This document shows positions 13,604 to 64,000 of a DNA stretch of 64,000 nt, piece by piece; the first letter of the stretch is position 1, and the number at the start of each line of letters is the position of its first letter. Source of the DNA: an uncultured Thermoleophilia bacterium. Its GTDB lineage: Bacteria > Actinomycetota > Thermoleophilia > UBA2241. The notes below the pieces were generated by a model that had not been told where the DNA came from, searched no databases, and saw nothing but the letters and a program-made list of their open reading frames with translations. The stretch covers positions 480,001 through 544,000 of the forward strand of contig CAVQSP010000014.1 in the NCBI GenBank assembly GCA_963715985.1, read 5' to 3'. The position numbers were made by a program, and so were the translations under genes.

Positions 13604-14158
13604 GTGGCAGGCACCACGGAGTCGGGCGGCACGACCCGACTGACCGTCAACGGACGCCCGTACAGCTTCGTCCTCGGCCACGATCTGTCCGCCTCGGCGA
13701 CGCTGGCTGAGGTCCTGCGCGATCGCCTCGGCCTCACCGGGCTCAAGGTCGCCTGCGACGAGGGCGCCTGCGGCGCCTGCACCGTGATCGTGGACGGGCG
13801 CGCCGTGCTCTCCTGCATGACGCTGGCGGTCGAGGCCGCCGGCCGCGAGATCCTCACCGTCGAAGGGCTCGCCGACGACGACCCGGTCGTGCAGGCCTTC
13901 GCCTGCCAGTGCGAGCCCGGGCATGGCACCGCGCTACAGTGCGGGTTCTGCACCCCCGGCGCCGTGATGACCGCCAAGGCCTTTCTGAACGAGAACCCGG
14001 CGCCGACGCTGGACGAGGTCCGCGAAGCGCTGGCGGGCAACCTCTGCCGCTGCGGCTGCTATCAGGGCATCGCCCGGGCCGTGCTGAACGCCGCCGCGAC
14101 GCTGCGCGAGCGGCGCGGCCAAGCCCAGCCGGTCGCGGCAGGGAGGGCGGAGGCGTGA
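13604..14158 (+). CDS. xanthine-dehydrogenase-family small subunit, 2x[2Fe-2S]
   Basis: KVACDEGACGACTV...SC and QCGFCTPG...NLCRC. Confidence 0.92.
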   Translation: MAGTTESGGTTRLTVNGRPYSFVLGHDLSASATLAEVLRDRLGLTGLKVACDEGACGACTVIVDGRAVLSCMTLAVEAAGREILTVEGLADDDPVVQAFACQCEPGHGTALQCGFCTPGAVMTAKAFLNENPAPTLDEVREALAGNLCRCGCYQGIARAVLNAAATLRERRGQAQPVAAGRAEA

Positions 14159-16679
14159 ACAGCCACCGTAGGGACGCTATCGAGGGGGGCGCCGAAGGCG
14201 CACCCCTCCGCGCCTTCACGCCACGAGAGCCACGGCGCTTCATCGGCACGTATCGCCCGCGCATCGACGCGCTCGAGAAGGCCAGCGGCCGCGCCGAGTA
14301 CCTCGACGACATCGCCCTCGGCGTCAAGCTGCCGGGCATGCTGCACGCCAAGGTGCTGCGCAGCCCGTACCCGCACGCTCGCATCCTCAGCATCGGCACG
14401 GCGAGGGCCGAGGCGCTCCCCGGCGTCCACTGCGTGCTCACGTACGCGGATCCCGGAGGTCGCGGCGCTCAAGCCCACCACCAACGCCTGGACCAGCATG
14501 AACACCGCCGGTTACAAGCAGATGTACTGGCCCAGCCTGCGCGACCGACGCGTGCTGAGCGACCACGTCACCTGGGTCGGCGACGAGGCCGGCGCCGTGG
14601 TCGCCGCCGAGACGGAGGAGATCGCCGAGGAGGCGCTGCGCCTGCTCGAGGTGGAGTGGGAGGAGCTGGCGTTCGCGCTGCGGCCGCCGCAGGCGCTGGC
14701 CGCGGACGCCCCGCTCATCCACCCGGAGGTCAATCCGTCCAGCAACCTCTTCCCGGTGGCGGAGGACACGCAGGAGGACGTCTTCTACGAGCGCGGCGAC
14801 GTCGGGCAGGGCTTCGCCGCCGCCGACGTGGTCGTGGAGGTCACGTCGCGCCACCACCGCGCCGACCACGGCTGCCTGGACACCCGCGGCTGCCTGGTGC
14901 GCTGGGAGGGCGGCAAGCTCACCTGCTGGACCAACCTGTACCAGGCCGACCAGACGCGCATGCACATCGCCGAGATGCTCGACCTGCCGCTGAACAAGGT
15001 CCGCGTCATCTGCCCCTACCTCGGCGGCTCGTTCGGGCGCGGCAATGTAGGCGACCAGATCTTCTTCATCTTCACCGCCATCCTCGCCCGCCGCACCGGC
15101 CGCCCCGTGCGCTTCAAGCACACGCGCCGCGAGGACTTCCACGACACGCGCAACTCGGTCGAGTACTGGCTGCGCGTCGGTGCCACGCGGGACGGGCGCA
15201 TGACGGCCCTGGAGACGCACGCCCTGGGCGACAGCGGCGCCTACGCCGAGCACACGCACGCGGCCGTCAAGATGGTGCTCGAGCTCGACGCCCTCGAGGT
15301 CCTGCTGCCGCGCATCCCGGCGGTACGCCTGAAGGGCCACTCCGTGTACACGAACAGCATCCCCGGCGGCTGCATGCGCGGCATCGGCAACATCCAGTTC
15401 AACATGGCGATGGGTCTGGCCGTGGACGAGCTCGGCCGAGAGGCTGGGCATGGACCCCATCGAGGTGGCGGTGCGCAACTTCAGCCACGAATGGGAGGAG
15501 ACGCCCAACCGCAGCCTGCAGGCGGTGTTGGCGGCCGGGGCGGAGCGCATCGGCTGGGAGCGTCGCGGCGCCCCCGGCGCCGGTGAGCCCGGGCCGGACG
15601 GCAGGCTCCGCGGCCTGGGGTTCTCGTTCCACCACGCCTGGCACGCCGCCTGGCAGGAGGAGGCGCGCGGTCGCGTCCAGGTGGGCGTCACGCTCAATCC
15701 GGACGGCTCCGTGGTCCTGGACGCGCCGCAGGCGGAGACCGGCACGGGCTCCAACACCTGCGCCGTGCTGGCCTGCGCCGAGTCCATGGCGTCCCTCGGT
15801 GTCACTCCGGACGACGTGGAGTGGGTGCGGAACACCGACACCGAGACCGGCCTCAAGGACATGGTCCAGACCGACAGCGCCGTAGCGTACCTCCACGCCG
15901 AGGTGATGGACCTCGCCGTGGCCGACATCCGCGCGCAGCTCTGCCGCACGGCGGCCGCGATGCTGAAGGTGGAGGTGGATGCGGTGGACATCCGCGACGG
16001 GCTCGTTCTCGTCGGCGGCGCGGAGAGCGGCGCCACCGTGCACGACGTTCTGCAGGCGCCGGACATGCTGCCCTTGCGGGCGACGGCCACGGAGATGCCC
16101 CCGCTGGCCAAGACCGGCGCCCCCTACCTGGCGTCCTTCGTGGAGGTGGCCGTGGACACCGAGACCGGCAAGGTCGACGTGGAGCGCCTCGTCATCGTCC
16201 ACGACGCCGGCACGGTGATGTATCCGCCGGGCGCCGAGGCGCAGCAGATCGGCGCCCAGGTGCAGTCCGTGGGGGAGGCCCTGTACGAGGAGATCGTCTA
16301 CGACGAGGCCACCGGCCGGCCTCTCACCTTCGATTGGATCGGTTACACGATGCCCACCATGCTCGACATGCCCACCGTGGAACCCGTCCTGCTCGAGGTG
16401 TGGAAGGGCGCCGGCGAGTACGGGGCCTGCGGCGTCGGCGAGTCCGCCATCACCTGCACGCCGCGCGCCATCCTCAACGCCGTCTACAACGCCACCGGCG
16501 CGCGCATCAACGAGATCCCCGCCAAGCCGGAGAAGGTGCTCGAGGCCCTGGCGCGGCTGCGTGACGGCCGGCCCGGCCTCGACGAAGAGCTGACCGCCGA
16601 GGTCCGGCGCCGCCTGGACAGGGCCACGAGCTTGAGCGCCGCCGGCACCCGCTCTGCCGACCAGGAGGTGGCGCCGTGA
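14155..16679 (+). CDS. xanthine-dehydrogenase-family molybdopterin-binding large subunit (frameshifts near 14452 and 15440)
   Basis: DALEKASGRAEY..D, LRSPYPHARI, YLGGSFG, MRGIGNIQ, ETGTGS, HDAG, GACGVGES, NAVYNATG. Confidence 0.88.
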
Positions 16680-19106
16680 CCTTCTCGCATCACAGCGCCG
16701 ACACCGTGGCGCGGGCCGTGGAGCTGCTGGCCGAGTCCGGGGCCGGCGGCCGCGTCGTGGCCGGCGGTACCGACCTTCTCGGCCTCATCAAGGACCGCGT
16801 GCATCCGGAGGAGCCCTCCGCGCTGGTCGACCTCAAGAGGGTCCCCGGCCTCGATCACATCGAGGAGCGCGACGGCGGGCTCGCCCTCGGCAGCCTGGCG
16901 CGGCTCAGCGACCTCGAGCGGGACCCGCTGGTCCGTGAGCGCTTCCCGGCCCTGGCGGAGGCGGCGCACGCCGTCGCTTCACCGCAGCTTCGCAACATGG
17001 GCACGGTGGGCGGCAACATCTGCCAGGAGCCGCGCTGCTGGTACTACCGTGCCCCCGAGGACACGTTCCACTGTACGCGCAAGGGCGGCAGGTACTGCAA
17101 CGCCTTCACCGGCGACAGCCGCTACCACTCCGTCGCCGGGTCCATGACGGTGCACACGCGTCCGTGCACGGCCGCCTGCCCCGGGGATGTGGAGATCCCC
17201 GAGTACATGGAGCTTCTCCGCGCCGGCGACGTCGACGCGGCTGCCCGGCGCCTGCTGGCGCGCAACGCCTTCCCGGCCGTGACGGGACGGGTGTGCCCGC
17301 ACACCTGCGAGGACGAGTGCAACCGCGGGCTCTTCGACGACGCGGTCTCGGTGCGCGAGGTGGAGCGGTATCTCGGCGACCACGTGCTCGACCATCCCGA
17401 GCTGCTCGGCGCGCCGGCGCCGTCCACCGGCCGCAGGGTGGCCGTGGTCGGGTCCGGCCCCGCCGGCCTCGCGGCCGCGTACCACCTGCGGCTGCGCGGC
17501 CACGGCGTCACCGTGTTCGAGCGCGCCGACGAGCTGGGGGGGATGCTGCGGTACGGCATCCCCGAGTACAGGCTGCCGCGCACCGTGCTCGACCGCACCG
17601 TGGGTCTGGTGGAGGGCCTCGGCGTCGAGTTCCGCACCTGCATGTCGCTGGGCGAGACGCTGGACCTCGGCGCGCTGCAGGCTGAGTTCGACCGCGTGGT
17701 CATCGCCACCGGGGCGTGGGCCCTGCCGCGCATCGGTCTTCAAGGGGAAGAAGAGCTCGGCGCGGGGCTCGCCTTCCTCAGGGCCGTGGCTCAGGGCGAG
17801 CGCCGTGTCCCCGGCCCTCGCGTCCTCGTCATCGGCGGCGGCAGCGTGGCGATGGACGTGGCCGTCAGCGCACGCCGCCTCGGCGCCGAGCAGGTCACCG
17901 TGGCCTGCCTCGAGACGTGCGAGGAGATGCCGGCCCTGCTCGAGGAGGTGGAGGATGCTCTGGCCGAGGGCATCGAGCTCGTCCCTTCGTGCGGTCCGGC
18001 GCGCGTCCTGCGCAGCGGCGACGCGATCACCGGGATGGAGCTGGTGCGCTGCACCTCGGTCTTCGACGAGAACGCCTGCTTCTCACCGGCGTTCGACGAC
18101 AGCAGCCGCGAGACCGTGATGGCCGACGAGGTGATCCTCGCCGTCGGCCAGCGCGTGGACGCGGCCGCCCTCGAGGCCGCCGGCCTGCCGCTGGAGGGCG
18201 GCCGTCTGGCCGCCGACCCGGTGACCCAGCGCACGGCGGTGGAGGGCGTGTTCGCCGGCGGCGACGTGTCCACGGGCCCGGCCACGGTCATCGCCGCCAT
18301 GGGAGCCGGCCGCCGCGCCGCCGCGGCCATCCACGCAGGAGCTCGCAGCCCCGGACCCGGTCGGGGCCGAGGGGCCGGCGTCGGCGACCGCAGGCGGACC
18401 GGCCTTGCAGGCGTTCGACCCCGCCTGTGTCGCACACTCGGCGCGCTGTGGTGCGGCCTCTGGCAGGCCGGCGGACCGCACGCTGTGCGACGAGGACTTC
18501 TGCACGATCGACGCGCCCTCGGTGGCGAGCGAAGCCTCGCGCTGCTTCAACTGCGGCTGCGTCGCGGTGGTCCCGTCGGATCTCGCCCCGGTGCTCGTGG
18601 CGCTCGACGCCACCGTCGTCACCACCACCCGCGAGATCCCCGCGGGCGCCTTCTTCGCGGCCGTCGAGGGCGGCTCTACTGTGCTCGAGCCCACCGAGCT
18701 CGTGCTCGAGGTCGTGCTGCCGCCGGACGCGGCCGCGCGCCGCTGCGCCTTCCGCAAGTTCCGCCTGCGCAATGCCATCGACTTCCCGATCGTCTCGGCG
18801 GCGGTGTCGTTCCGGGTCGAGCACGGGTCGATCGAGGATCCCCGCGTGGTCCTCGGGGCCGCCGCCCCCGTGCCGTTGCGTGCGGCCGCCGTCGAGGCGG
18901 CCCTGGCGGGACATGCGCTCGAGGACGTGGGCTCGCGCGCGTTCGGCCGTCACCTCACGGAGCGCGTCCTCGAGGGCTCCGTCACACTGCCGCACAGCGC
19001 GTACAAGGCGCAGATCGCGGCGGCGCTGGTGGTGCGCGCGGTCCGCCGGGCGGCAGGTCTGCCCGAGCAGTCACGGGAGGACTCGGCGCGAGGTCAGGAG
19101 CTGTGA
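16676..19106 (+). CDS. XDH-family FAD subunit ([4Fe-4S]-insert type) with internal GltD-like NAD(P)H oxidoreductase module (frameshift near 18340)
   Basis: VAGGTDL, ASPQLRNMGTVGGNICQEPRCWYYR, then PCTAACP / GRVCPHTCEDEC / GSGPAG / GGMLRYGIP / IGGGSVAMD / FAGGD, then EASRCFNCG-CVAVVPSDLAP and KFRLRNAIDFPIV. Confidence 0.85.
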
Positions 19107-20179
19107 GCAGCTCGCGCGAGGACGCAGGCGTCGGTCGCGATGCGGCCCAGGATCGCTCGCCGGTCCGGGTGGTGACCGTGGGCATCGGTGAGATGGGCAA
19201 GAAACTCTGCCTGACGCTGCTCGAGAGGGAGGGCATCGAGATCGTCGCGGCCTGCGACAGCGACCCCGGCATCGCCGGCAGGGACCTCGGCGACGTGATC
19301 GGTCTGGGCCGGACGCTGGGCATCACCGTCCGCGCAGGCGTGGACGAGGTGTTCCGGGGCGTGAAGGCGGACATCGCCCTCTTCAGCACCGTCACCGATC
19401 TGGAGGAGCTCACCCCACAGATCCTCGCCGCCCTGGACGCCGGGTGCGACGTCATCTCCACCTCTGAGCCGCTCTCCTACTCCTGGCGGACGTCGCCCGA
19501 CCACACGGCAGCGCTGGACGCCGCCGCGAAGGCGCGGGGGCTCACTGTGCTCGGTACCGGGATCTGCCCGGGGTTCCTGCCCGACGTGGTGCCGATCGTG
19601 GCCACCCTGGGCAGCCGCCGCATCGACCACATCGACATCAAGATCTTCGGCGACGTGTTCCCCTACGGCCCGAGCGTGTGGAAGGGCATGGGGCTCGGCC
19701 TCACCGAAGAGGAGTACGGCCGCCGGCTCGGGAACGAGGTCGACATCGAGTTCGCCGAGCCGGTCGACCAGGTAGCGGCCGCCATCGGCATGCGCCTCGA
19801 TGAGGTCCGTGAGGCGAGCCGGCCGTTGCTGGCGCCTCACGACATCCGCGTGGGGGCGCTCGAGGTGGGGCGGGGGAGGGTGTGCGGCTTCGTGCAGACG
19901 ACCTCCGGCTACGTCGGGGAGCGGGAGGTCATCCGCCTCACGGTCGAGGGCCCCCTCTGCTGCGACCTGCCGCCCTTCACGGTCGAGGTCAAGGTCACGG
20001 GCAAGCCCAACGTCAAGCTGCGCCTGGAGCTGGAGCACGAGGACGGCTGGTCGACGAGCACGGTCGTGGCGAACATGGTCCCCCGCGTGCTCGAAGCCCG
20101 TCCCGGCGTCGTCGCCATGAAGGACCTGAAGCTGGCCGGCGCCGTCGACGGGGACGTGCGGGCCTTTCTCGCGGACTAG
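19103..20179 (+). CDS. 2,4-diaminopentanoate dehydrogenase / native amine dehydrogenase-like (DapB-like N-terminus)
   Basis: VGIGEMG, GCDVISTSE, LGTGICPGFLPD, TVVANMVPRV..ARPGV; GTGA overlap with the upstream gene. Confidence 0.7.
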   Translation: MSSSREDAGVGRDAAQDRSPVRVVTVGIGEMGKKLCLTLLEREGIEIVAACDSDPGIAGRDLGDVIGLGRTLGITVRAGVDEVFRGVKADIALFSTVTDLEELTPQILAALDAGCDVISTSEPLSYSWRTSPDHTAALDAAAKARGLTVLGTGICPGFLPDVVPIVATLGSRRIDHIDIKIFGDVFPYGPSVWKGMGLGLTEEEYGRRLGNEVDIEFAEPVDQVAAAIGMRLDEVREASRPLLAPHDIRVGALEVGRGRVCGFVQTTSGYVGEREVIRLTVEGPLCCDLPPFTVEVKVTGKPNVKLRLELEHEDGWSTSTVVANMVPRVLEARPGVVAMKDLKLAGAVDGDVRAFLAD

Positions 20180-20365: not shown

Positions 20366-22081
20366 GTGACCGACCTCCTCAACGTCGACCTGACGCACGG
20401 CAGCGTGGCGAGGGAACCCCTCGGCGTGGACCTTGAACCCCTCGGCGGCCACGGCCTCACGTCGGCCATCGTCGCCAGAGACGTCCCTGCGGACGCGGAC
20501 CCCCTTGGGCCCGGCAACGTCCTCGCGATCGCGGCCGGCATCTTCGCCGGCACGTCCGTGCCCAACGGCGGCAGGCTGTCCGTCGGCGGCAAGAGCCCGC
20601 TCACGGGCGGCATCAAGGAGGCCAACTCGGGCGGCTCGGCGGCGCGCGCGCTCGCGGGCCTGGGCCTGCGCGGCATCAGGATCGCCGGCCGCGCCGACGG
20701 TCTCAGCGTGCTCGAGGTGAACGCGGACGGCGGTAGGCTTGTGCCGGCGCCCGAGCTCGCGGGGCTCGGCTCCTATGCGACCGTCGACATGCTGCGCGAG
20801 AAGTACGGCGACAAGGTCTCGTTCATCTGCATCGGCCCCGCCGGTGAGCTGCAGATGAAGGCGGCGGCCGTCATCGTCACAACGGCCGACCACTACCTGC
20901 GCGCGGCTGCCCGTGGCGGCCTCGGCGCGGTGATGGGTTCCAAGAACCTCAAGGCCATCGTCATCGACGGCGCCGGCGGCGCCGGCGTCGCGGTCGCCGA
21001 CCCCGCGGCACTCAAAGACGCCTCAAGGGCGCTCAGCAAGGGCATCCTCTCCCACCCGGCCATGGCCGCCCTGGAGGCGCTGGGCTCGGCTTTCCTCGTC
21101 AACCTCACCCAGTCCATGGGCTGCCTCGCCACCAGGAACTTCTCCGCCGGGCAGTACGAGAACGCCCAGCAGATCACGGGCGAGCACATGGTCGAGATCA
21201 TGAACGCGCGGCCCAACGGGCGATGCCGAAGCACAGCTGCATGAGGGGCTGCATCATCAACTGCTCGCAGGTGTACACCGACGAGGACGGCGAGGTGATC
21301 ACCTCCGGCCTCGAGTTCGAGACCATCGGCCTGGTCGGCTCCAACTGCGAGCATCGACGACCTCGACGAGATCGCCCGCATCGACCGCATGTGCGACGAC
21401 CTCGGGCTGGACACCATGGACGTGGGCGCCGCGATGGGCGTCGCCATGGAGGGGGGTCTCCTGGACTGGGGCGACGGCCCCGCCGCGCTCGAGATGCTGG
21501 GCAAGCTGACGGCCGGCGACGAGAACGCCAGGCTGCTGGCGAACGGCTGCGCCGCTACGGGCAAAGCTCTGGGCGTGGCACGCATCCCCGCCGTCAAGGG
21601 TCAAGCCTTCGCCGCCTACGACCCGCGCGTGCTCAAGGGCACGGGCTCCACCTACGCCACGAGCCCGCAGGGCGCCGACCACACCGCCGGTAACGCGCTG
21701 CCGAGCCCGGCGAATCCCATGTACGACCCGGCGTCGGCGGAGGGCCAGGCGCAGATCTCCGAGTTCCTGCAGTGCTACTTCGCCGCCATCGACTCGCTGG
21801 GCATGTGCCTGTTCGCCACGCTGCCGGCGCTCGACATCCCGGAGCTGCAGGGCCTCATGGTGGCCGCCGCCGCCGCCGTCACCGGCGAGCAACTGCCGGA
21901 CGACTACCTCATCAAGATGGGCGACCGCATCGTCCGCGAGGAGCGCGACTTCAATCGCCGCGCCGGTTTCACTGCGGCCGACGACCGGCTGCCGGCGTTC
22001 TGTGTGGAGGAGCCGGTGCTGCCGTCGGGCAACCGCTACGACGTGGCGGAGTCCGACCTCGACGCGATGTTCGCGAGCTGA
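20366..22081 (+). CDS. aor: tungsten-type aldehyde:ferredoxin oxidoreductase (frameshifts near 21225 and 21350)
   Basis: KSPLTGGIKEANSGG, IGPAGE, AARGGLGAVMGSKNLKA, CMRGCIINC, EFET, CDDLGLDTM, YDPR, GADH. Confidence 0.88.
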
Positions 22082-23017: not shown

Positions 23018-23075
23018 TTGAATCGCGCTGCCCGATACCTTACGGTAGGATGCGTAAAGTGATATGTGAATACCA
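23018..23075 (+). promoter_or_regulatory. promoter plus TGATAT-N4-ATACCA operator for the 23.1-32.2 kb operon
   Basis: TTGAAT(23018)-17 nt-TACGGT(23041); palindrome at 23060-23075. Confidence 0.65.
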
Positions 23076-23095
23076 TTGATGAGAGGGCGTGCCGC

Positions 23096-24924: not shown

Positions 24925-24947
24925 CGCACACGAAAGGGACACAGCCG

Positions 24948-26940: not shown

Positions 26941-26985
26941 CGCGCGCCCAGCGCCGCCGACTCCACCGTCCGCAAGGAGAGAGCT

Positions 26986-27792: not shown

Positions 27793-27821
27793 CGACCAGC
27801 GGACGAGAAGGGACACCGGAC

Positions 27822-32249: not shown

Positions 32250-32304
32250 GTCCTGGCGGGCGAGGGCGACCCGGCGTGTGAAGGGGAGTCGGAGGAGGAC
32301 TGTG

Positions 32305-51812: not shown

Positions 51813-51876
51813 CGGCGTTCTCCTGTTCGCCGGCGGACTGGTCCCGCGTCAGGGGGCGCGACGGCGACGCGGTCTC

Positions 51877-55376: not shown

Positions 55377-56234
55377 TCAATCAGGTGACACGGAAGACGG
55401 CCGGGATGGGTTCCAGCCGAGGTAGGCGGAGAGCGAGGCGGCCGCGCTCTTGACGGCGCGCGTGCAGAGCTCGCGTTCGTCGGGGCCGAAGCGCCCGGTG
55501 GGCATGACCACGGACATCGCGGCGACAACGTTGCCGAGCTGGTCGCGGACGGGCGCGCCGACCGCACAGATGCTGGGGAAGAGCCCCTCCACGTCGTAGG
55601 CCACGTCGTCCTCGACGACGCGGTCGAGCTCGTTCGCGAGCGCCTCGGGGTCGGTGACCGTATACGGCGTGTGCCGGCGCCGCGCCTGTGCCAGCACTTC
55701 GGCGCGCTTCTCCGGCGGAGCGAAGGCGGTGAAGATCTTGCCGTGCACGGAAGCGAGGTCGCCGATGATGCGCCCCGGGGCGACGTCGCGCTTGAAGGGT
55801 CGTGCGGAGTCGATGTTGGCAACACTCACGGGCGTGCCGTCCACCGGCACCGCCAGAGTGACCGACTCGCCGGTCTCATCGAGAAGCTGCTGCAGGAACG
55901 GGCGCGCGTGCTCCACGAACTCGGAGTAGTCCTCGACCACGTAGGCCATGGCGATGGTGGCGGGGCCGAGGTGGTACTGGTTGGTCGTGGTGTCGCGGAC
56001 CAGGAACTCTGCGGCCTCCAGCGTGCGGACCATGCGATACACGGTCATGCGCAGGAGGCCGGTGCGGGCGGCCATCTCGTCGATGGTCCACTCACGACGG
56101 TCCACGTCGAACAGCGAGAGGATAGAGAGGCCGCGCGCGAGAGCGCGCACGGTGAGCGGGTCGGTCTCGGCCGGTCTGTCGTGCACGCCGCCGGCCTGAC
56201 CGCCATCGCGAGCCTGTGCTGCGGTGGTCGTCAT
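55377..56234 (-). CDS. IclR-family transcriptional regulator (paralog 3)
   Basis: RALARGL.IL, WTIDEM, TGESVTL, GRIIGD.ASVHGK, APVRDQ, PTGRFG. Confidence 0.9.
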   Translation of the reverse strand: MTTTAAQARDGGQAGGVHDRPAETDPLTVRALARGLSILSLFDVDRREWTIDEMAARTGLLRMTVYRMVRTLEAAEFLVRDTTTNQYHLGPATIAMAYVVEDYSEFVEHARPFLQQLLDETGESVTLAVPVDGTPVSVANIDSARPFKRDVAPGRIIGDLASVHGKIFTAFAPPEKRAEVLAQARRRHTPYTVTDPEALANELDRVVEDDVAYDVEGLFPSICAVGAPVRDQLGNVVAAMSVVMPTGRFGPDERELCTRAVKSAAASLSAYLGWNPSRPSSVSPD

Positions 56235-56289
56235 GCCATCCCCCTTGTCGGACCCCGATGCCTCTTGCCTGGCGCCGTTGCACAGGAGT

Positions 56290-56339
56290 ACGATATTCGC
56301 GTTGCTATCAGACGATATCAGCGTTTTGACGATATGCAA
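56290..56339. promoter_or_regulatory. AT-rich divergent promoter region with three ACGATAT half-sites
   Basis: ACGATAT at 56290, 56312 and 56329; minus-strand TTGCAT-16 nt-TATCGT. Confidence 0.5.
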
Positions 56340-56418
56340 GGTGTCTGGTCGTTCGGCGTCGCCCGGCGGGGGTCATGGCCGCGGCAGCGCTCCACGGGAG
56401 CCGGTGGGAGGTCGCCCA

Positions 56419-58947
56419 ATGAGTGAACAGGTCTTCACCAATCTGACGAACTGCGGGCCGGTGTCCGTGTACGTCAGGGACGGGGTGGTCACACGGATCC
56501 TGCCGCTCGTGGCGGACGAGGCCGACTTCCGGCCCTGGACGATCGAGGCGGGGGGCAAGCAGTACTCCCCGCCGAAGAAGTTCAACCTGGCGCCGATGGT
56601 GCACGCCGAGCGTCGGCGCCTCTATTCGGACGAGCGCATCAAGTACCCGATGAAGCGCGTCGACTTCGACCCGAACGGCGAGCGTAACCCCCAGAACCGC
56701 GGCAAGTCGGCGTACGAGCGCATCTCCTGGGACGAGGCGCTCGACATCGTCTCGGGGGAGATCGCGCGCGTGAAGAACGAGTACGGCAGCTCGGCCATCA
56801 GCGGCATGACCTCGTCGCATCACAACTGGGGCATCGTCGGCTACAAGATGGGCCCGTTCATGCGCTTCATGAACTGCCTCGAGGCCACCCCGGTCTTCGA
56901 CAACCCGGACAGCTGGGAGGGGTGGCACTGGGGCGCCACGCACACCTACGGCTTCTACTGGCGCCTTGGCATGCCCGAGCCGTTCGACAATCTGCAGGAC
57001 GTGCTCAAGAACTCCGAGATGATCGTCCTCTGGTCGAACGACCCCGATACCACGCGCGGCACCTACTCGGGCCAGGAGTCGGCCATCTGGCGCACGTGGC
57101 TCAAGGAGAAGGGCGTCCCCACAGTCTTCATCGATCCCTTCCACAACTACACGAACGCGCTCTTCGACGAGGGCAAGTGGATCGCCCCGCGTATGGGCAC
57201 CGACACGGCGCTGGCGATGGCGATCGCCTACGTGTGGATCACCGAGGACACGTACGACAAGGAGTACGTCGCCGACCGCACCATCGGCTTCGACGAGTTC
57301 AAGCCGTACGTGCTCGGCGAGACGGACGGCGTGCCCAAGACGCCGGAGTGGGCGGCCGAGGAGTCCGGCGTCGAGGCGCGCGTCATCCGCACGCTGGCGC
57401 GGGAGTGGGCCGGCAAGCGCACCGCCCTCGCGGCCGGCGCGCGGGGCGGCGAGGGCAGCGCGTGCCGGACCGCCTACGGCACCGAGTGGGCGCGGATGAT
57501 GGTGCTCCTCCAGGCCATGCAGGGTCTGGGCAAGCCGGGCATCACCATCGGCGGGATCTCGATGGGCGCTCCGGCGGACTTCGAGACCTGGTTCCCGGCC
57601 TACGCCGAGCCGCAGGGGCGCATGTCCCACTCGACGAAGGCGGCCGACTACATCCCGAAGAACTCCACGAAGCAGAGGCTGTGGCGGCTCACGGTGCCGG
57701 ACGCCATCCTGGATCCTCCCGTGGAGTGGGACGGCGCCGGCTTCTGCGGGCAGTCGCTCGAGCAGCAGTTCGAGCACTTCGTGTATCCGGCCGAGGGCTG
57801 CTCCGAGATCAAGCTCTGGTACCGCTACGGCGGCTCCTTCATGGGCACCATGTCCGACACCACCAAGTGGGTGCGCATGTACCAGAGCCCCAAGCTCGAG
57901 TTCGTCGTCAACCAGGACGTGTGGTTCAACAGCGAGACGCGTATGGCCGACGTCATCTTGCCGGCCTGCAGCAACTTCGAGCGCGACGACCTCGGCGAGT
58001 TCGCCGCCTGCGGCGGCTACACCACGAACTCGCACTCGGGCAACAACTACCGCGTCATCGTGCGTGAGCAGAAGTGCATCGAGCCCCTCTGGGAGTCCAA
58101 GTCCGACTACCAGATCCTCGCTGCCCTTTCCGAGCGGCTCGGCATCTACGACGAGTTCACGGACGGCGGCAAGACCGAGATCGACTGGGCCAAGGCGTTC
58201 TACGACTGCTCCGACCTGGCCAAGGTGCTCGACTGGGAGACCTTCGACAAGAAGGGCTACCACATCATCAACGCCCCCGAGGACTACGAGCCCAAGCCGT
58301 GCCTGCGCTGGTTCGCGGAGGGCCGCGCCTGCGACACGCCCGACACCGGCAACCCGAAGCGCGGCACCGACAAGGCGCACGAGCTCGGCACCTACAGCGG
58401 CAAGATCGAGTTCTCGTCCGAGAGCCTCAAGGCTCACTTCCCGGACGACCAGGAGCGGCCTGTCTCTCCCCGGTACATCGAGAGCTGGGAGGGCCATCAC
58501 ACGACCGAGCTCATCGAGAAGTACCCGCTGCAGCTCATGTCGCCGCATCCGCGCTTCTCGTTCCACTGCCACTACGACAAGCACACCGACTGGCTCGACG
58601 ACATCCCCGTCCACCGCATCAAGAAGGACGGCTACGCGTGGTGGCCGGTGCGCATGAGCCCGGCGGACGCGGACGCGCGCGGCATCCGCAACGGCGACAT
58701 CGTGCGCCTGTACAACGACCGCGCGTCCGTGCTCTGCTGCGCGGTCGTCACCGAGCGGATCCGCCCGGGCATCGTGCACAGCTACGCGTCGTCGGCCAAG
58801 TACGACCCGCTCGAGCCCGGCAAGGCCGACTCGGTCGACAAGGGCGGGTGCGTGAACATGCTGACGCCGTCGCGGATGGTCAGCCGGCACGCCCCGGGCA
58901 TGACGCCCAACTCGTGTCTCATCGACATCGCGAAGTGGGAGGGCTGA
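56419..58947 (+). CDS. transhydroxylase-like Mo-bisPGD large subunit, paralog C (intact ORF)
   Basis: GPVSVYVRDG, SSHHNWGIVGY, DNPDSWEGWHWG, ACRTAYGTEWAR, FPAYAEP, AACGGY, SPHPRFSFH. Confidence 0.9.
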   Translation: MSEQVFTNLTNCGPVSVYVRDGVVTRILPLVADEADFRPWTIEAGGKQYSPPKKFNLAPMVHAERRRLYSDERIKYPMKRVDFDPNGERNPQNRGKSAYERISWDEALDIVSGEIARVKNEYGSSAISGMTSSHHNWGIVGYKMGPFMRFMNCLEATPVFDNPDSWEGWHWGATHTYGFYWRLGMPEPFDNLQDVLKNSEMIVLWSNDPDTTRGTYSGQESAIWRTWLKEKGVPTVFIDPFHNYTNALFDEGKWIAPRMGTDTALAMAIAYVWITEDTYDKEYVADRTIGFDEFKPYVLGETDGVPKTPEWAAEESGVEARVIRTLAREWAGKRTALAAGARGGEGSACRTAYGTEWARMMVLLQAMQGLGKPGITIGGISMGAPADFETWFPAYAEPQGRMSHSTKAADYIPKNSTKQRLWRLTVPDAILDPPVEWDGAGFCGQSLEQQFEHFVYPAEGCSEIKLWYRYGGSFMGTMSDTTKWVRMYQSPKLEFVVNQDVWFNSETRMADVILPACSNFERDDLGEFAACGGYTTNSHSGNNYRVIVREQKCIEPLWESKSDYQILAALSERLGIYDEFTDGGKTEIDWAKAFYDCSDLAKVLDWETFDKKGYHIINAPEDYEPKPCLRWFAEGRACDTPDTGNPKRGTDKAHELGTYSGKIEFSSESLKAHFPDDQERPVSPRYIESWEGHHTTELIEKYPLQLMSPHPRFSFHCHYDKHTDWLDDIPVHRIKKDGYAWWPVRMSPADADARGIRNGDIVRLYNDRASVLCCAVVTERIRPGIVHSYASSAKYDPLEPGKADSVDKGGCVNMLTPSRMVSRHAPGMTPNSCLIDIAKWEG

Positions 58948-58951: not shown

Positions 58952-59780
58952 ATGCGCCTCGGCATGCTCATAGACGTCACCAGGTGCAGCGGCTGCCACA
59001 ACTGCTTCCTGGCCTGTCGTGACGAACACTACGGCAACGAGTACCCCGGCTACTCCGCGGCCCAGCCCCTGAACGGCCAGTTCTGGATGCAGGTCAGGGA
59101 GGTCGAGGGCGGCAAGTACCCGCGGCCCCGGCTCAACTACATCGCCATCCCCTGCCAGCACTGCCGGAACGCGCCGTGCCTCGACGCCGCCAAGGACGGC
59201 GCGGTGTATCGCCGCGAGGACGGGATCGTGATGATCGATCCCGAGAAGGCGAAGGGGCAGGACCAGATCGTGGCCTCCTGCCCCTACCGCGTCATCTACT
59301 GGAACGCCGAGCTGGAACTGCCGCAGAAGTGCGGCCTCTGCGCCCAGCGTCTCGACAGCCGGCGACAGGCAGCCGCGTTGCGTGGAGTCGTGCCCGACGG
59401 GTGCGATGGCGTACGGCGACCTCGACGATCCCGGGTCCGAGATCGCCAAGCGCCTCGAGGAAGTCTCGTCCGAGGTCCTGCATCCCGAGTACGGGACGGA
59501 TCCTCTGGTGACCTACGCCGGCCTCCCGGGCCGCATGGTCGCCGGCGAGGTCGTGCTCGAGGGCAGCGACGTCTGCGCCGAGGGCGTCAAGGTCACGCTC
59601 CAGGGCGACGGGGTCTCCCTGGAGACGGCGTCGAGGACGTTCGGCGACTTCGCCTTCGAGCGCCTGCCGCAGAGCAAGGCGTTCACGGTCACCGTCGCCG
59701 CCGACGGCTTCACGCCGCAGGTGTTCGACGTGAAGACGCACACCGACGTCGATCTCGGCGAGGTCGTGCTGACGAAGTAA
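58952..59780 (+). CDS. transhydroxylase small subunit-like (PgtS/BthL) Fe-S protein (frameshift near 59362)
   Basis: CSGCHNCFLACRDEH, CQHCRNAPC, AKGQDQIVASCPY (one cluster motif degenerate, as recalled for BthL), KCGLC, FGDF.FE domain, DLGEV.L. Confidence 0.85.
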
Positions 59781-59862: not shown

Positions 59863-60594
59863 TCAGGTGGCGCTCGCGCCCAGCCCCGAAGCCTCGAGGG
59901 CGCGGGTCATCAGCTGCCGGACCCTGCACACGTGCGACACGGCGGCAGCGGCGGCGCGCCCGGGGTCCTGCTCGCGGATCGCGGCCACGATCTGCTCGTG
60001 CGTGGCGAAGACGTCGTCCTCGGAGCTGTCGAGGAGCTCTTCGTCCACGGGCAGGAAGAGGTCGGCGCGCACCGCGTTCATGGCCAGCGCCAGACGCGAG
60101 CTGTGGGCGGCGCGGGCGATGCTGCGGTGGATGCCGGCATCCGCCTGGAAGAGCGAGGCGCGGCGGCGGTTGTCGCGCTCCTCGGCGAGGGCGCGCTCGA
60201 TGTCGTCGAGCTCTGCCTCCGTGCGGCGCTCCGCGGCCAGCTCGGCGAGCCGGCTCTCGATGGTGATGCGGAACTCGAAGATGTCGTCGAGCTCGCGGCG
60301 GTGCAGGGCCATCCACTGGTCCCAGCACTTCTGCAGAGCCTGCACGTCGCTCACACGCGAGCCGCCGTGGGCGCCGCGCGTGGTCACGAGGTAGCCGGTG
60401 CTCTCCAGCGACTTGAGCGCAAGGCGGAGGGTGACGCGTGAGATCCCCAGGCGCGCGGCCAGTTCGGTGGCAGGGGGGAGGCGGTCGCCCGGGCCCAGCT
60501 CGCCCCAGAAGATGAGGGCGCGCACGTAGCGCTCGGCGCTCTCGCTGGCCGTGCCGGGGGTGAGAGACATGTCGTCGAAGCTCTGTTCGCTCAT
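59863..60594 (-). CDS. GntR/FadR-family regulator
   Basis: GDRLPP..ELA..LGISR.TLR.AL..LE..G...T.RG..GG HTH; FCD domain (EFR..IE, D..IH, H.QI). Confidence 0.9.
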   Translation of the reverse strand: MSEQSFDDMSLTPGTASESAERYVRALIFWGELGPGDRLPPATELAARLGISRVTLRLALKSLESTGYLVTTRGAHGGSRVSDVQALQKCWDQWMALHRRELDDIFEFRITIESRLAELAAERRTEAELDDIERALAEERDNRRRASLFQADAGIHRSIARAAHSSRLALAMNAVRADLFLPVDEELLDSSEDDVFATHEQIVAAIREQDPGRAAAAAVSHVCRVRQLMTRALEASGLGASAT

Positions 60595-60634
60595 GCCACC
60601 GAGTCCGTTCGTGTACGGCGTGATTGTAGCAGGC

Positions 60635-60662
60635 TTGACATGAATATCTAAATGGCTACCAT
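60635..60662 (+). promoter_or_regulatory. promoter with overlapping FadR-like palindrome ATGG-CTA-CCAT
   Basis: TTGACA(60635)-16 nt-TACCAT(60657); palindrome at 60652-60662 next to divergent FadR. Confidence 0.55.
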
Positions 60663-60716
60663 CTATACAATTCAACGGGATCCCGGCAGCCCGCCGGGGT
60701 GATGAGAGGAGCCGCG

Positions 60717-62905
60717 ATGCCCGCCGACGTCCACGATGCGCGCGAGGTCGCGGCAGGCATCGTCGAGGGGGCGCTCAGGGCGGGTCGGCCGGCCCTCGAT
60801 GAGGCGGCCGCCAAGCAGGTCCTGGCCGCCTACGGCATACCCGTTCCGGCCGGCGGTGTCGTGCATTCGGCGCCGGAGGCGGTCGACCTGGCCGCAGCGC
60901 TGGGCGGGCCGGTGGCTCTGAAGGCCGCCGGCGCCCTCATCCAGCACAAGACGGAGGCCGGCCTGGTCCTGCTCGACCTGCGCACGCCCGACGAAGTCGG
61001 CGCCGGCTACGCGATCCTCGCGGAGCGCGGCGGCGACGCTCTGGAGGGCGTGCTCGTGGAGCAGATGGTGGCCGGCAGCCGCGAGTTCCTGATCGGCATG
61101 AAGCGCGACGCCGCCTTCGGTCCCGTAGTGACGTTCGGCCTGGGCGGGACCATGACCGAGGTGTTCCGCGACATCGTTCTGGCGATCCCCCCTGTCGCTG
61201 ACGACGATGTCGCGGAGCTCCTCGGCCTCATCAAGTCCAGGGCGCTGCTCGGCAACTTTCGCGGGCAGCCGGCCGTGGACCGCGACAAGCTCGTCGCGAT
61301 CTTCCAGGCCGTCGCGCGCCTCGCCGCCGAGCAGCCGCGCATCGCGGAGATCGACGTGAACCCGCTGCTCATCGCCGGCGACTCGCCGGTGGCCGCGGAC
61401 GCGCTGATCGTGCTCGGGGCGGAGGCGCGCGCAGGTGCCGGCGCACAGGGCGTTCACCCCCGACCTGGAGGCCGTGCTGGCGCCCCGGTCTGTCGCCATC
61501 GTCGGCGCCTCCGACGACGTCGTGAAGTGGGGAGGGTCGGCGCTCAAGAACATCATGGCCGGCGGGTTCGAGGGAGCCATCTACCCGATCCACCCCAAGG
61601 GCGGCGAGTTCTTCGGCTTGCCCGTGTATCCGAGTCTCGCCGACACGCCCGAGCCGCCGGACATGGCGCTGCTCGCCGTCGGCGCCGCTCGCGTCCCCGA
61701 CATGGTCGCGGAGTGCGGCGCCAGGGGCGTGCGGTCCGCCGTCGCCATCGCCGCCGGCTTCGCCGAGACGGGGGAGGCCGGGGAGGAGGCCGAGCGGACG
61801 CTGGCCCAGACGGCCGACGAGGCCGGCGTGACGCTCATCGGCCCCAACTGCATGGGCATCATCGCCAACGCCACCAGCTTGCACGCGACCGGCTTCATCG
61901 CCCTGCACCCCCGCCCCGGCAAGCTCGCCATCGTCTCCCAGTCCGGCAACCTCGGCGTCCAGCTGACGGAGCTCGCCGACCGTAGGGACGTGGGCGTACG
62001 CTGCTTCATCGGCGTCGGCAACGAGGCGCAGGTGAGCGCCGTGGACGTGGTCGACTACCTGTCGCGCGACGACGGCACGGCCTCCGTACTCATGTATCTC
62101 GAGGGCATCGACGACGGCCGTCAGCTGCTCGACGTGGCGCGAGCGACCGGCCGGAAGAAGCCGGTCGTCGTGCTGCGGGGCGGCCTCACGGAGCACGGGG
62201 GCAAGGCCGCCGCGTCGCACACCGGCGCCATGGCCGGTTCCGCGGCCGTCTTCGAGGCCGCGGCGCGCCAGGCCGGCCTCGTCACCTGCACCTCGGTACA
62301 GGAAGCGCTCGACCTGACGATCTGTCTTGCGCACCTCCCGCTGCCCAGAGGCCGCCGCATGGCCATCGTCACCAACGGTGGCGGCGCCGGCGTCCTCGCC
62401 GCCGATGAGATGTCTCGCCACGAGCTCATGCTCGTCGACCCCCCGCAGGAACTGCTGGACGAGCTCGACACCATCCTGCCGCCGTTCTGGAGCCGCCGGA
62501 ACCCGATCGACATGGTGGCCATGGCCGGCGGCGACGTCGCCCATCGCGTGCTCTCGGCGGTCGCCAAGAGCCCGGCTGTGGACGGCATCGTCGTCCTCTC
62601 GGTCCTCGGCGTGCCCAACACGGGTGACGAGGTGCGCTCCCAGAGCCTCACCGGCGACTACGACGACTTCAGCCCCTGGGAGAAGACGCTACCTCGACCT
62701 CGTCGCCGACCTCATGCGCGAGACCGGCAAGCCCATCATCAACGTCCCCGACCTGCCCCTGCGCCGGGCGCTTCACGCCGGCGACCACCTGTACACTCCC
62801 GTCGTGGTGTCCACGCCGCGCAACGCCGCGCTCGTTCTCGCGCGTATGGCGAGCTATGGCGCCTGGCGCCACGACACGAATCCGCGACCGAAGGATCCCG
62901 CATGA
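60717..62905 (+). CDS. ADP-forming acyl-CoA synthetase, beta(ATP-grasp)-alpha fusion (frameshifts near 61450 and 62688)
   Basis: AYGIPV, HKTEAG, FGPVV.FGLGG, EIDVNP; then SVAIVGAS, AGFAE, IGPNCMG, SQSG, phospho-His AASHTGA, NP.D. Confidence 0.88.
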
Positions 62906-64000
62906 GCACGACCGACGTAGCGGGGGCGAGCCGGGAGACAGCCGCCCCGCAGCTGGAGATCATGTCCGGCAACGAGGCCATCGCCCGCGGCGCCTGGGAG
63001 GCGGGCGTACGCTTCGCCTCGGCCTATCCCGGCACGCCGAGCACCGAGATCATGGAGAACCTCGCCGGCTACGACGGCGTGTACGCCGAGTGGGCGCCCA
63101 ACGAGAAGGTCGCCGTCGAGGCCGCCACCGGCGCGTCCATGGCGGGCGCCCGCGCCCTGGCGTGCATGAAGCACGTGGGCCTCAACGTCGCCGCCGACCC
63201 GTTCTTCTCGTCCTCGCACGTGGGCGTGACCGGCGGGCTTGTGATCGTCTCCGCCGACGACCCCGCCATGCACAGCTCGCAGGACGAGCAGGACAACCGC
63301 AACTACGCCAAGTTCGCGAAGATGCCCATGATCGAGGCGTCCGACGCCGACGAGATGCTCCAGTTCATCAAAGCGGCGTACGAGCTCAGCGAGTCGTTCG
63401 ACACGCCGGTGCTGTTCCGTACCACCACACGCACGTCGCACGCCCAAGGCGTGGCGCGGCTGGGCGAGCGGGTCCCCGAGGCCGAGCCACTCCTCACCCT
63501 CGACCGCGACCCCGCCAAGCACATCATGATGCCGCACAACGCGACCAAGCGGCACGTCTTCATCGAACAGCGCCTTCTGGACCTGGCCGAGTGGGCGGAG
63601 ACCACCGACCTGAACCGCGTGGAGATGGGCGACACCCGCGTCGGCATCGTCACCTCCGGCGCCGCCTACGGCTCCGCCAGGGAGGCGTTCCCGCGGGCCA
63701 GCTTCCTCAAGCTCGGCTTCACGTACCCGCTGCCTCGCCGCCTCATCGCCGACTTCCGCGCCAAGGTCGACAAGCTGTACGTGGTGGAGGAGCTCGATCC
63801 GTTCCTCGAGGAGCTCATCCGCCTGCAGGGCGTGCAGGTCGACGGCGGCAAGGACCTGCTGCCGCTGTGCGGCGAGTTCAACCCCGGCCTCGTGGCTCGC
63901 GCCCTCTCCGAGGCCGGCGTGCCCGGCGTGGACGAAGCGCTGCTGGTGGTGCCGGCCCCGGCGGCCGACGACCTGCCCGACCGGCCGCCGACCCTGTGCC
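62902..64000 (+). CDS. iorA: indolepyruvate:ferredoxin oxidoreductase alpha subunit (runs off window)
   Basis: MSGNEAIARGA.EAG....AYPGTPSTEI, NEKVA.E, MKHVGLNVAADP, DDP.MHSSQ.EQD.R, VVEE.DP.LE, RPPTLC. Confidence 0.92.
   Translation, partial: MSTTDVAGASRETAAPQLEIMSGNEAIARGAWEAGVRFASAYPGTPSTEIMENLAGYDGVYAEWAPNEKVAVEAATGASMAGARALACMKHVGLNVAADPFFSSSHVGVTGGLVIVSADDPAMHSSQDEQDNRNYAKFAKMPMIEASDADEMLQFIKAAYELSESFDTPVLFRTTTRTSHAQGVARLGERVPEAEPLLTLDRDPAKHIMMPHNATKRHVFIEQRLLDLAEWAETTDLNRVEMGDTRVGIVTSGAAYGSAREAFPRASFLKLGFTYPLPRRLIADFRAKVDKLYVVEELDPFLEELIRLQGVQVDGGKDLLPLCGEFNPGLVARALSEAGVPGVDEALLVVPAPAADDLPDRPPTLC

Follow-up and report, generated by a model that had tools for sequence, protein, structure and literature searches.

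We describe a block of catabolic genes in a 64,000-nucleotide stretch of DNA (called the window throughout) from an uncultured Thermoleophilia bacterium (GenBank assembly GCA_963715985.1, contig CAVQSP010000014.1, positions 480,001 to 544,000). Thermoleophilia is a class of Actinomycetota often met in soils, of which few members are in culture. Core genes end at ribH, and from position 13604 to the end of the window lie six Mo/W-pterin catalytic subunits (one of the XO family, one of the AOR family and four of the DMSO-reductase family), together with the families of a known phloroglucinol pathway, a transporter and four regulators. We think it probable that this block is a modular catabolic island for the O2-independent use of plant-derived trihydroxybenzenes. 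By our judgement, made without a formal test, six Mo/W-pterin catalytic genes in 50 kb exceed by far what drawing genes at random would produce.

Much of this inventory had been given in a preliminary description made from the letters of the sequence, which placed the end of the core genes at ribH and listed the six pterin enzymes, CoA-dependent C–C cleavage enzymes, an indolepyruvate:ferredoxin oxidoreductase (IOR) with an ADP-forming synthetase, four regulators and no oxygenases. Profile searches bear it out at closely matching positions (Table 1). The C–C cleavage enzymes are a BKACE protein and two thiolases, the IOR and synthetase genes lie within 60771–64000, the regulators are three IclR proteins and one GntR protein, and none of the Pfam scans of the window brought up an oxygenase family. 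Because a G+C content of ∼70% yields 228 open reading frames (ORFs) of at least 100 residues, genes were called with the aid of G+C at the third codon position (GC3); Pfam and NCBIfam profiles were scanned against the ORFs and against stop-to-stop frames.

Predicted phloroglucinol and transhydroxylase genes

At 23066–28603 an SDR, a cyclase, a 3-hydroxyacyl-CoA-dehydrogenase-like (3HCDH-like) enzyme, a BKACE protein and a thiolase are co-located, the complete family set of a characterised pathway. Anaerobic phloroglucinol degradation in Clostridium scatologenes uses a phloroglucinol reductase (PGR), a dihydrophloroglucinol cyclohydrolase (DPGC), an (S)-3-hydroxy-5-oxohexanoate dehydrogenase (TfD), a triacetate acetoacetate-lyase (TAL) and a thiolase (PMC10470551). 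The 3HCDH-like gene is of the same family as the C. scatologenes TfD gene and has the same neighbours (PMC10470551). In the alignment with Kce of lysine fermentation (2y7d), the window BKACE has a Phe opposite the Glu of ‘ITGAET’; in the C. scatologenes TAL, Trp16 replaces Glu14, which binds the 5-amino group in Kce (PMC10470551). The Phe, which is bulky, non-acidic and aromatic though not Trp, parallels this Trp16.

Two cyclase-family genes stand in tandem. In DPGC the metal site of the cyclase family is conserved and the substrate pocket contains Trp20/Tyr22 (PMC10470551); compared by motif, cyclase 2 keeps THMDAP and has a Trp in ‘PEWPS’. The tandem recurs, at 67–90% identity across phyla, in loci L011, L013, L016, L028, L058, L061 and L076 of the genome comparison described below, with THMNAP in the first member and THMDAP in the second, and the two proteins may together make up a heteromeric enzyme for ring opening that differs from the single DPGC type. 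Further along come a family III CoA-transferase, a DUF35/SCP-x pair and an enoyl-CoA hydratase, by which the same C6 intermediates could be processed as CoA esters; a route of that kind is said to have been proposed earlier for Pelobacter acidigallici.

The block also carries three paralogues of the transhydroxylase large subunit (AthL_A, AthL_B and AthL_C) and two small subunits (BthL_A and BthL_C). Pyrogallol–phloroglucinol transhydroxylase moves a hydroxyl group from 1,2,3,5-tetrahydroxybenzene onto pyrogallol, which yields phloroglucinol. Family membership, close homology and conserved neighbourhood identify them as putative AthL/BthL-type hydroxyl-transferases with a Mo bis-(molybdopterin guanine dinucleotide) cofactor, and the genes above as a predicted full phloroglucinol set. 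The intact AthL_A aligns with P. acidigallici AthL (4v4c_A) over residues 71–907 (837 residues, 879 bits, E = 3.5e-263). A 580-residue N-terminal piece of AthL_B reaches 839 bits, which makes it the paralogue nearest the Pelobacter enzyme, and AthL_C reaches 319 bits. AthL_A and AthL_B are 51–52% identical, and PF21423 was found in all three. Small-subunit genes adjoin AthL_A and AthL_C. The intact L001 orthologue of BthL_A scores 196 bits to 4v4c_B. In L001 and L028 AthL_B comes after a BthL gene (at 2527–8924 of L001 the order is AthL_A–BthL_A–AthL_B), and the L001 orthologue of AthL_B is intact.

The motifs ‘SHH’ (144), ‘PDSW’ (174/175) and ‘P(A/G)YAE’ (404) are kept in AthL_A and AthL_B. 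His144, Asp174, Tyr404 and Arg153 are what we take to be substrate-site residues in the Pelobacter transhydroxylase chain; at these positions and Ser175, AthL_B agrees at all five and AthL_A at four, with Lys at 153, and AthL_C keeps the Asp-Ser only. In the AthL_C clade the Tyr motif ‘PxYAE’ is missing and the ‘GDGHGE’ segment differs. Ser is the Mo ligand in transhydroxylase (PMC10100899). AthL_B, AthL_C and BthL_C show no twin-arginine (RR) motif within their first 45 residues, and the AthL/BthL enzymes are predicted to be cytoplasmic. We take AthL_B to be the likeliest true pyrogallol–phloroglucinol transhydroxylase. Its clade is rare (5–6 of the 79 loci compared below); that of AthL_A is the widespread lineage beside SDR and cyclase genes.

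On the minus strand, a fourth DMSO-reductase-family gene is flanked by genes for an NrfD-type anchor and a 4Fe-4S protein on one side and by AthL_B on the other. Its product, of ∼735 residues, begins MAERKQILTTCKSCHGGC, with an N-terminal Cys cluster and with no RR motif or export signal at the N-terminus. Among solved structures, the best match of its intact L003 orthologue (89–93% identity) is acetylene hydratase (2e7z, 289 bits; the next scores 168). Where acetylene hydratase presumably has Asp after the second cluster Cys, the window enzyme has His (CKSCHGGC). Of the characterised enzymes, acetylene hydratase is the one most closely related to the gut catechol dehydroxylases; some of these are accompanied by a 4Fe-4S protein and an anchor, though they have twin-arginine (TAT) signals (PMC7028382). 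The whole operon, AthL_C–BthL_C–4Fe-4S protein–NrfD–acetylene-hydratase-like enzyme–AthL_B, may be a cytoplasm-facing, membrane-anchored, quinone-coupled system for hydroxyl transfer or dehydroxylation. It may convert other hydroxybenzenes (hydroxyhydroquinone, resorcinol, catechols) to phloroglucinol or supply tetrahydroxybenzene as the co-substrate.

Conservation beside AthL_A orthologues

A genome scan with AthL_A gave 643 matched stretches, 629 of them confirmed as relatives, from which 79 loci were kept. In all, 48 gene pieces of the window were compared with these loci by best assignment at at least 30% identity and more than 50% coverage; the enoyl-CoA hydratase piece was out of frame and carries no weight, and that of IclR regulator 1 was likewise out of frame. 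Many of the loci are short contigs (∼2 to 22.6 kb), and absences near AthL_A are therefore weak evidence. The closest loci by AthL_A identity are L004 (93%), L003 (87%) and L028 (83%), all from Thermoleophilia metagenome-assembled genomes (MAGs), and L001 (92%), labelled Deltaproteobacteria; other Actinomycetota loci are at 74–77% and Desulfobacterota loci at 75–79%. The Thermoleophilia loci accord with the high-GC Actinomycetota-like host of the preliminary description, as does placement by RibBA: of the organism-named matches among the 120 listed, six of seven read ‘Ther...’ or ‘Thermole...’ and one ‘Actinomy...’. RibBA also has metagenome matches at 99% identity.

As a search for the same gene set in other genomes, the comparison showed that the sub-operons recur beside AthL_A orthologues, with at least one of SDR, cyclase, 3HCDH and BKACE present in 41 of the 79 loci. 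The SDR was found at 35 loci, the ADP-forming synthetase at 28 (beta) and 23 (alpha), AthL_C at 24, the thiolase at 23, IclR regulator 3 at 19 (conserved in position), the SCP-x thiolase at 18 and its DUF35 partner at 17. Cyclase 1 followed with 15, the acetylene-hydratase-like gene with 14, cyclase 2 with 11, BKACE with nine and 3HCDH with seven; lower counts were those of the Liv transporter genes (6–8), substrate-binding protein 2 (six), IOR (three) and GntR (three). L004 is collinear with the window over 45.8–64 kb. Thiolase–cyclase 1–cyclase 2 directly adjoin AthL genes in L028, 3HCDH–BKACE–SDR directly adjoin AthL_C/BthL_C–IclR–AthL_A/BthL_A–thiolase in L045, and MoaF–LivHMGF–binding protein adjoin the same AthL core in L048 and L055.

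These recurrences bear on the most general alternative, that the block is a chance juxtaposition of unrelated operons: amino-acid or beta-amino-acid catabolism of a kind with lysine or ornithine fermentation (BKACE, 3HCDH, the DAP_DH-like enzyme, the aminotransferase and the Liv transporter), aromatic amino-acid fermentation (IOR and the synthetase) and respiratory reductases of the DMSO-reductase family. It has in its favour that the best models of the BKACE and DAP_DH-like proteins are Kce and 2,4-diaminopentanoate dehydrogenase, but both matches fall below cut-off and the amino-binding Glu of Kce is Phe in the window protein. The best transporter models are urea and branched-chain amino-acid systems, and the XO, DAP_DH-like, CoA-transferase and iron-containing alcohol dehydrogenase (Fe-ADH) genes are near AthL_A orthologues in 0/79 loci; yet BKACE, 3HCDH, SDR, cyclase, thiolase and Liv genes recur beside AthL/BthL in several phyla. 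Moreover, three of the four DMSO-reductase-family genes are closely related to a non-respiratory hydroxyl-transferase and none of the four has an export signal. We regard chance juxtaposition as improbable.

A closer alternative keeps the pathway aromatic and takes the AthL paralogues, especially A and C, for net-redox hydroxylases or dehydroxylases (like resorcinol hydroxylase, like catechol dehydroxylases or on a hydroxyhydroquinone route), with entry substrates other than pyrogallol. Sequential transhydroxylations from hydroxyhydroquinone, reportedly found in P. massiliensis, count in its favour. So do the 51% identity of AthL_A to AthL_B, the latter being nearest the Pelobacter enzyme, and the missing Tyr motif of the AthL_C clade; the AthL_A clade is, however, most often beside SDR (35/79) and cyclases, which fits a phloroglucinol-producing role. 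Resorcinol hydroxylase is in the same Ser-ligated RhL/PgtL group (PMC10100899), and the minus-strand operon includes a membrane anchor and an enzyme like acetylene hydratase, the nearest characterised relative of catechol dehydroxylases (PMC7028382), but the likeness to resorcinol hydroxylase and catechol dehydroxylases is drawn from published descriptions. We consider this alternative rather unlikely and prefer pyrogallol-type trihydroxybenzenes as the entry substrates.

Several findings weigh against the trihydroxybenzene island as we propose it. NCBIfam equivalog cut-offs are reached by none of the key enzymes: BKACE scores 224.7 bits against a cut-off of 430 with NF053538 (3,5-dioxohexanoate:acetyl-CoA transferase), less than its 298.1 bits with the Kce model (cut-off 382). 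The best solved relatives of the SDR are gluconate-5-dehydrogenase-type SDRs, and from gene context we infer phloroglucinol as its substrate. Cyclase 1 has Asn for the metal-motif Asp, as do all eight aligned sequences of its clade, the window included, and both cyclases are 28–39% identical to the single cyclases beside 3HCDH, BKACE and SDR in L069–L073. No small-subunit gene stands beside AthL_B in the window, the substrate specificities of AthL_A, AthL_B and AthL_C are predicted ones, no gallate decarboxylase was found in the window, and ∼15 frame changes fall within island genes. Near AthL_A, MoaF and the aminotransferase were each found at two loci and AOR at 1–2, and the XO subunits, including the GltD-fused FAD subunit, the DAP_DH-like, CoA-transferase and Fe-ADH genes and ORF 43830 at 0/79. 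The preliminary description had proposed one integrated O2-independent hydroxyaromatic system. This stands for the block of ∼23–60 kb, which is coherent as a trihydroxybenzene system; membership of the XO, AOR, CoA-transferase and Fe-ADH genes, found at 0–2 of the 79 loci, is for that reason unproven, as is that of the DAP_DH-like gene.

In Desulfobacterota loci (L010, L013, L016, L017, L020, L026 and others) we also observed a recurrent order AthL–BthL–SDR–(cyclase pair)–ADP-forming synthetase beta/alpha–DUF35–SCP-x thiolase, a hint that the phloroglucinol pathway may have a variant that runs through CoA esters. In these loci the synthetase is only 30–36% identical to that of the window.

Reading frames, the XO-family end and accessory genes

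The GC3-phase track shows changes of reading frame in ∼20–25 genes of the window, essential ones among them; examples are at ∼3410 (metK), 4378–5276 (priA), 6478 (def), 18292–18339, 45815 and 59361. If these changes were real, the island would be decaying and most of its Mo/W enzymes would be pseudogenes. The genes concerned include those for the XO large and FAD subunits, AOR, cyclase 2, the enoyl-CoA hydratase, LivM, AthL_B, AthL_C, the acetylene-hydratase-like enzyme, BthL_A and the synthetase; but the essential upstream genes metK, priA (∼4 changes), def and rsmB hold ∼8 changes in 13.5 kb, a density at least that of the island. Homopolymers of at least five bases were not enriched at the changes (5/24 sites within 45 bases; background 0.13 per 90 bases), a point for decay; this test gives a homopolymer-error mechanism no support and leaves the cause undecided. 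The coding signal (GC3 at least 0.9), on the other hand, continues undiminished past each change, and the orthologues in L001 and L003 (82–93% identity) are single intact ORFs. Since the essential genes are equally hit, the coding signal continues and these orthologues are intact, the frame changes are most likely assembly indels rather than decay, and we consider a decaying island very improbable.

No tRNA genes were found in the window, and general Pfam scans of it gave no integrase or transposase family that would mark the borders of an island. G+C is 0.65–0.70 over most of the island (24001–60000) and 0.69–0.74 upstream (1–24000). This lower G+C suggests lateral acquisition or spread of the island, as does the percentage identity of AthL_A, which is about as high to Desulfobacterota orthologues as to other Actinomycetota ones.

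The XO-family genes open the block. Among NCBIfam models the large subunit comes nearest to 4-hydroxybenzoyl-CoA reductase alpha and XdhA, far short of the cut-off in either case, and the HcrA/B/C equivalogs (TIGR03194, TIGR03195 and TIGR03193) are not reached (alpha pieces 166 and 136 bits against 995, beta, in an intact homologue, 150 against 405, and gamma 142 against 258). The FAD subunit has an unusual domain order in Pfam: FAD_binding_5 (3–113), Fer4_20, Pyr_redox_2, FAD_binding_5 (112–168) and CO_deh_flav_C. The nested part is a complete GltD-like NAD(P)H/FAD/2×[4Fe-4S] module, placed after a loop with four Cys. The intact homologue just mentioned, P0001 (809 residues, 91% identity), maps to 16676–18292 and 18339–19100 with one frame change. 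About 115 of the best 120 listed homologues, from several phyla, have 727–822 residues and PF00941, PF14691, PF07992 and PF03450 together (table read by eye), and the nesting is therefore natural and not a misassembly. Just ahead of the insert stand Cys116, Cys121, Cys133 and Cys141; the window protein has all four, and none of them varies among 26 homologues. These Cys sit where 4-hydroxybenzoyl-CoA reductase beta has an extra 4Fe-4S-binding loop in its FAD subunit (PMC11760930), and TIGR03195 matches 5–162 and then 145–317. This architecture suggests an NAD(P)H-driven flow of electrons to the Mo site, as in reductive dehydroxylases. A limited literature search found no paper on such a GltD-nested FAD subunit, which does not show the family to be unpublished. 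The XO enzyme may be a self-contained NAD(P)H-driven reductive phenol dehydroxylase of a widespread family without a studied member.

Of the neighbouring genes, the DAP_DH-like one matches the NCBIfam 2,4-diaminopentanoate dehydrogenase model at 211 bits (cut-off 400), and AOR was considered as a possible BamB-type benzoyl-CoA reductase subunit, but no BamC-like gene adjoins it. The preliminary description spoke of aromatic-type ABC uptake. A Liv-type ABC system is indeed present; the aromatic type cannot be read from its sequence, which gave weak urea and branched-chain amino-acid matches below cut-off in NCBIfam. The synthetase reaches 421 bits with TIGR02717 (cut-off 567), its gene having a frame change. 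ORF 43830–44279 (149 residues, GC3 0.91) looks cupin-like by eye only and had no match in Pfam or NCBIfam scans.

Table 1. Features of the window in order of position (cut-offs are those of the NCBIfam models)
Feature	Coordinates	Strand	Evidence and remarks
Core genes gpsA, M6 peptidase, metK, priA, def, fmt, rsmB, rpe, ribD, ribE, ribBA, ribH	1–13431	+	
FMN riboswitch	9738–9857		110.7 bits; upstream of ribD; ordinary
ribH	12967–13431		Last core gene ahead of the island
XO-family [2Fe-2S] small subunit	13604–14158	+	Pfam Fer2_2 84 bits, Fer2; NCBIfam matches all below equivalog cut-offs
XO-family molybdopterin-binding large subunit	∼14191–16679	+	Three frames: Ald_Xan_dh_C, MoCoBD_1 175 bits, MoCoBD_2 153 bits
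XO-family FAD subunit with nested GltD-like module	16676–19103	+	One frame change at 18292–18339
DapB_N/DAP_DH_C NAD(P) dehydrogenase (DAP_DH-like)	19163–20179	+	DAP_DH_C 91 bits
AOR-family (tungsto/molybdo-pterin) aldehyde:ferredoxin oxidoreductase	20366–22081	+	AFOR_N 202 bits; AFOR_C pieces; three frames
IclR regulator 1	22123–22947	+	HTH_IclR, IclR_C
3HCDH-like enzyme, candidate TfD	23066–24073	+	3HCDH_N 175 bits
BKACE, candidate TAL	24070–24924	+	BKACE 316 bits
SDR, candidate NADPH PGR	24921–25718	+	adh_short_C2 180 bits
Acetoacetyl-CoA thiolase	25816–26940	+	TIGR01930 461 bits, above cut-off
Cyclase-family protein 1	26986–27792	+	Pfam Cyclase 103 bits; metal motif HTGTHMNAP
Cyclase-family protein 2, candidate DPGC	27822–28603	+	Cyclase matches in two frames; change near 28110; THMDAP kept
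Family III CoA-transferase	28605–29816	+	CoA_transf_3 329 bits
DUF35/ChsH2-type OB-fold protein, usual SCP-x thiolase partner	29846–30262	+	OB_ChsH2_C, zf-ChsH2
SCP-x-type thiolase	30259–31452	+	Thiolase_C_1; NF004715 396 bits, below cut-off 424
Enoyl-CoA hydratase	31463–32249	+	ECH_1 233 bits for 31539–32249; probable frame change near 31500
IclR regulator 2	32149–33177	+	HTH_IclR, IclR_C; true start probably near 32390
Class III aminotransferase	33271–34656	+	Aminotran_3 333 bits
MoaF-family protein	34705–35577	+	MoaF, MoaF_C
Substrate-binding protein 1, lipoprotein-type	35956–37188	+	Peripla_BP_6; N-terminus resembles lipoprotein signal
Iron-containing alcohol dehydrogenase	37410–38582	+	Fe-ADH, ADH_Fe_C
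LivH/LivM/LivG/LivF-type ABC permeases and ATPases	38947–42378	+	BPD_transp_2 twice, ABC_tran twice; LivM frame change near 40167
Substrate-binding protein 2, lipoprotein-type	42435–43673	+	Peripla_BP_6 199 bits
Small ORFs between transporter and AthL_B	43830–44279; 44273–44569; 44578–44841	+; −; −	Without family match
AthL_B, large subunit	44974–47557	−	Frame change near 45815
Acetylene-hydratase-like DMSO-reductase-family enzyme	47776–50012	−	Molybdop_Fe4S4, Molybdopterin, Molydop_binding in three frames
NrfD/PsrC-type membrane anchor	50047–51024	−	NrfD 60 bits; nine hydrophobic 19-mers
Four-cluster-type 4Fe-4S electron-transfer protein	51021–51812	−	Fer4 families; DsrO 183 bits, below cut-off 200; no RR motif
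BthL_C, small subunit	51809–52693	−	Fer4_11, CarboxypepD_reg; 175 bits to 4v4c_B
AthL_C, divergent large-subunit paralogue	52696–55249	−	AhtL-like_1st, Molybdopterin; frame change ∼54800–54900
IclR regulator 3	55377–56339	−	Divergent from AthL_A
AthL_A, intact large subunit	56224–58947	+	AhtL-like_1st, Molybdopterin, Molydop_binding; likely start Met 56419
BthL_A, small subunit	58952–59780	+	Fer4_11, CarboxypepD_reg in two frames; change near 59361
GntR/FCD regulator	59863–60675	−	Pfam
ADP-forming acyl-CoA synthetase, beta then alpha	60771–62800	+	ATP-grasp_5 210 bits; CoA_binding_2, Succ_CoA_lig
IOR alpha	∼62956–64000	+	TIGR03336 378 bits (partial); window end cuts gene

Proposed pathway and comparison with known systems

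In the pathway that we propose, the Liv-type ABC system and the two lipoprotein binding proteins would take up the substrate, and the AthL/BthL enzymes would isomerise pyrogallol, and possibly other tri- or tetrahydroxybenzenes, to phloroglucinol. The SDR would reduce phloroglucinol with NADPH, the cyclase pair would open the ring to give 3-hydroxy-5-oxohexanoate, and the 3HCDH-like enzyme would oxidise this to triacetate. BKACE with acetyl-CoA would then yield acetoacetate and acetoacetyl-CoA, from which the CoA-transferase and the thiolases would form acetyl-CoA, and the ADP-forming synthetase would produce acetate and ATP. The acetylene-hydratase-like enzyme, with the 4Fe-4S protein and the NrfD anchor, would hydroxylate or dehydroxylate a hydroxybenzene in a net redox step linked to the quinone pool. 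Regulation of the modules would fall to the GntR protein and the three IclR proteins. Among the substrates suggested in the preliminary description were aromatic amines, to which nothing in the evidence points specifically.

That description also called the system apparently undescribed, which does not hold. The core chemistry is not new: transhydroxylase structures have been solved (PDB 4v4c) and the ring-cleavage pathway was characterised in 2023 (PMC10470551). Similar gene sets are on record in MAGs, where AthL operons occur with IOR, AOR, ADP-forming synthetase and acetylene-hydratase-like genes (PMC3971608), and pgthAB has been reported together with PGR from marine clades and from peat microcosms (PMC12203004; SAR116 preprint). 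The CAMPER annotation tool also came up in a literature search on the pathway. With its modules recurring beside AthL_A orthologues in other genomes and its core enzymes known, the system is thus integrated but not undescribed. New is its presence in Thermoleophilia, which the literature compared does not point out for the class. We also entertain, as rather unlikely, that the island holds beside the known pathway two uncharacterised enzyme types (a membrane-anchored hydroxyl-transfer or dehydroxylation system and an NAD(P)H-driven XO-family dehydroxylase) and a heteromeric cyclase pair missed by profile surveys.

If our reading is right, Thermoleophilia have in this island a complete O2-independent route by which phenols of the pyrogallol type yield acetyl-CoA and ATP, which bears on the turnover of polyphenol carbon in anoxic soil niches and on the ‘enzyme latch’ debate (PMC10470551; PMC8084988). 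The AthL clade most often linked to phloroglucinol genes across phyla is that of AthL_A, whereas the one enzyme studied biochemically belongs to another clade. The AthL_C clade, the acetylene-hydratase-like enzyme and the cyclase pair travel with AthL_A and are targets for enzymology and for annotation profiles.

The closest known systems differ from module to module. With the 4-hydroxybenzoyl-CoA reductase HcrABC (PDB 1RM6) and the urolithin C dehydroxylase UcdCFO, the XO-family enzyme shares the three-subunit layout. Its FAD subunit has the four-Cys loop in the position found in 4-hydroxybenzoyl-CoA reductase and differs by the nested GltD-like NAD(P)H/FAD/2×[4Fe-4S] module; the equivalog scores are far below cut-off, and XO genes are near AthL at none of the 79 loci elsewhere.

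The acetylene-hydratase-like enzyme was likened to catechol dehydroxylases by their published description and by solved structures. Like the Eggerthella and Gordonibacter enzymes (Dadh, Hcdh, Cadh, Dodh and Cldh), it is nearest acetylene hydratase, in its case among solved structures, the criterion used in PMC7028382. With the E. lenta type it shares the genes for a 4Fe-4S protein and an anchor, but it is without the TAT signal; with the soluble Gordonibacter type it shares a length of ∼735 residues and the absence of a TAT signal, yet it has an anchor gene (PMC7028382).

In common with the C. scatologenes pathway, the window has five protein families in one co-directional cluster, and a BKACE that is likewise without the amino-binding Glu of Kce, although with Phe in place of the Trp of TAL and below the NCBIfam equivalog cut-off for TAL. 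It differs in having tandem cyclases for the single DPGC, one of them with Asn in the metal motif, in adding a family III CoA-transferase, a DUF35/SCP-x thiolase and an enoyl-CoA hydratase, and in uptake by an ABC system instead of an MFS transporter.

Finally, the large subunits share with P. acidigallici AthL (PgtL; PDB 4v4c, 4v4d and 4v4e) the AhtL-like first domain and the absence of an N-terminal FeS domain and export signal, and the small subunits share with BthL the 4Fe-4S clusters and a C-terminal CarboxypepD_reg-type (Ig-like) domain. Unlike that system, the window has three large-subunit paralogues for only two small-subunit genes, with Lys for Arg153 in AthL_A and no Tyr404 motif in AthL_C, and one of its pairs is encoded in the same operon as a membrane anchor and the enzyme that resembles acetylene hydratase.

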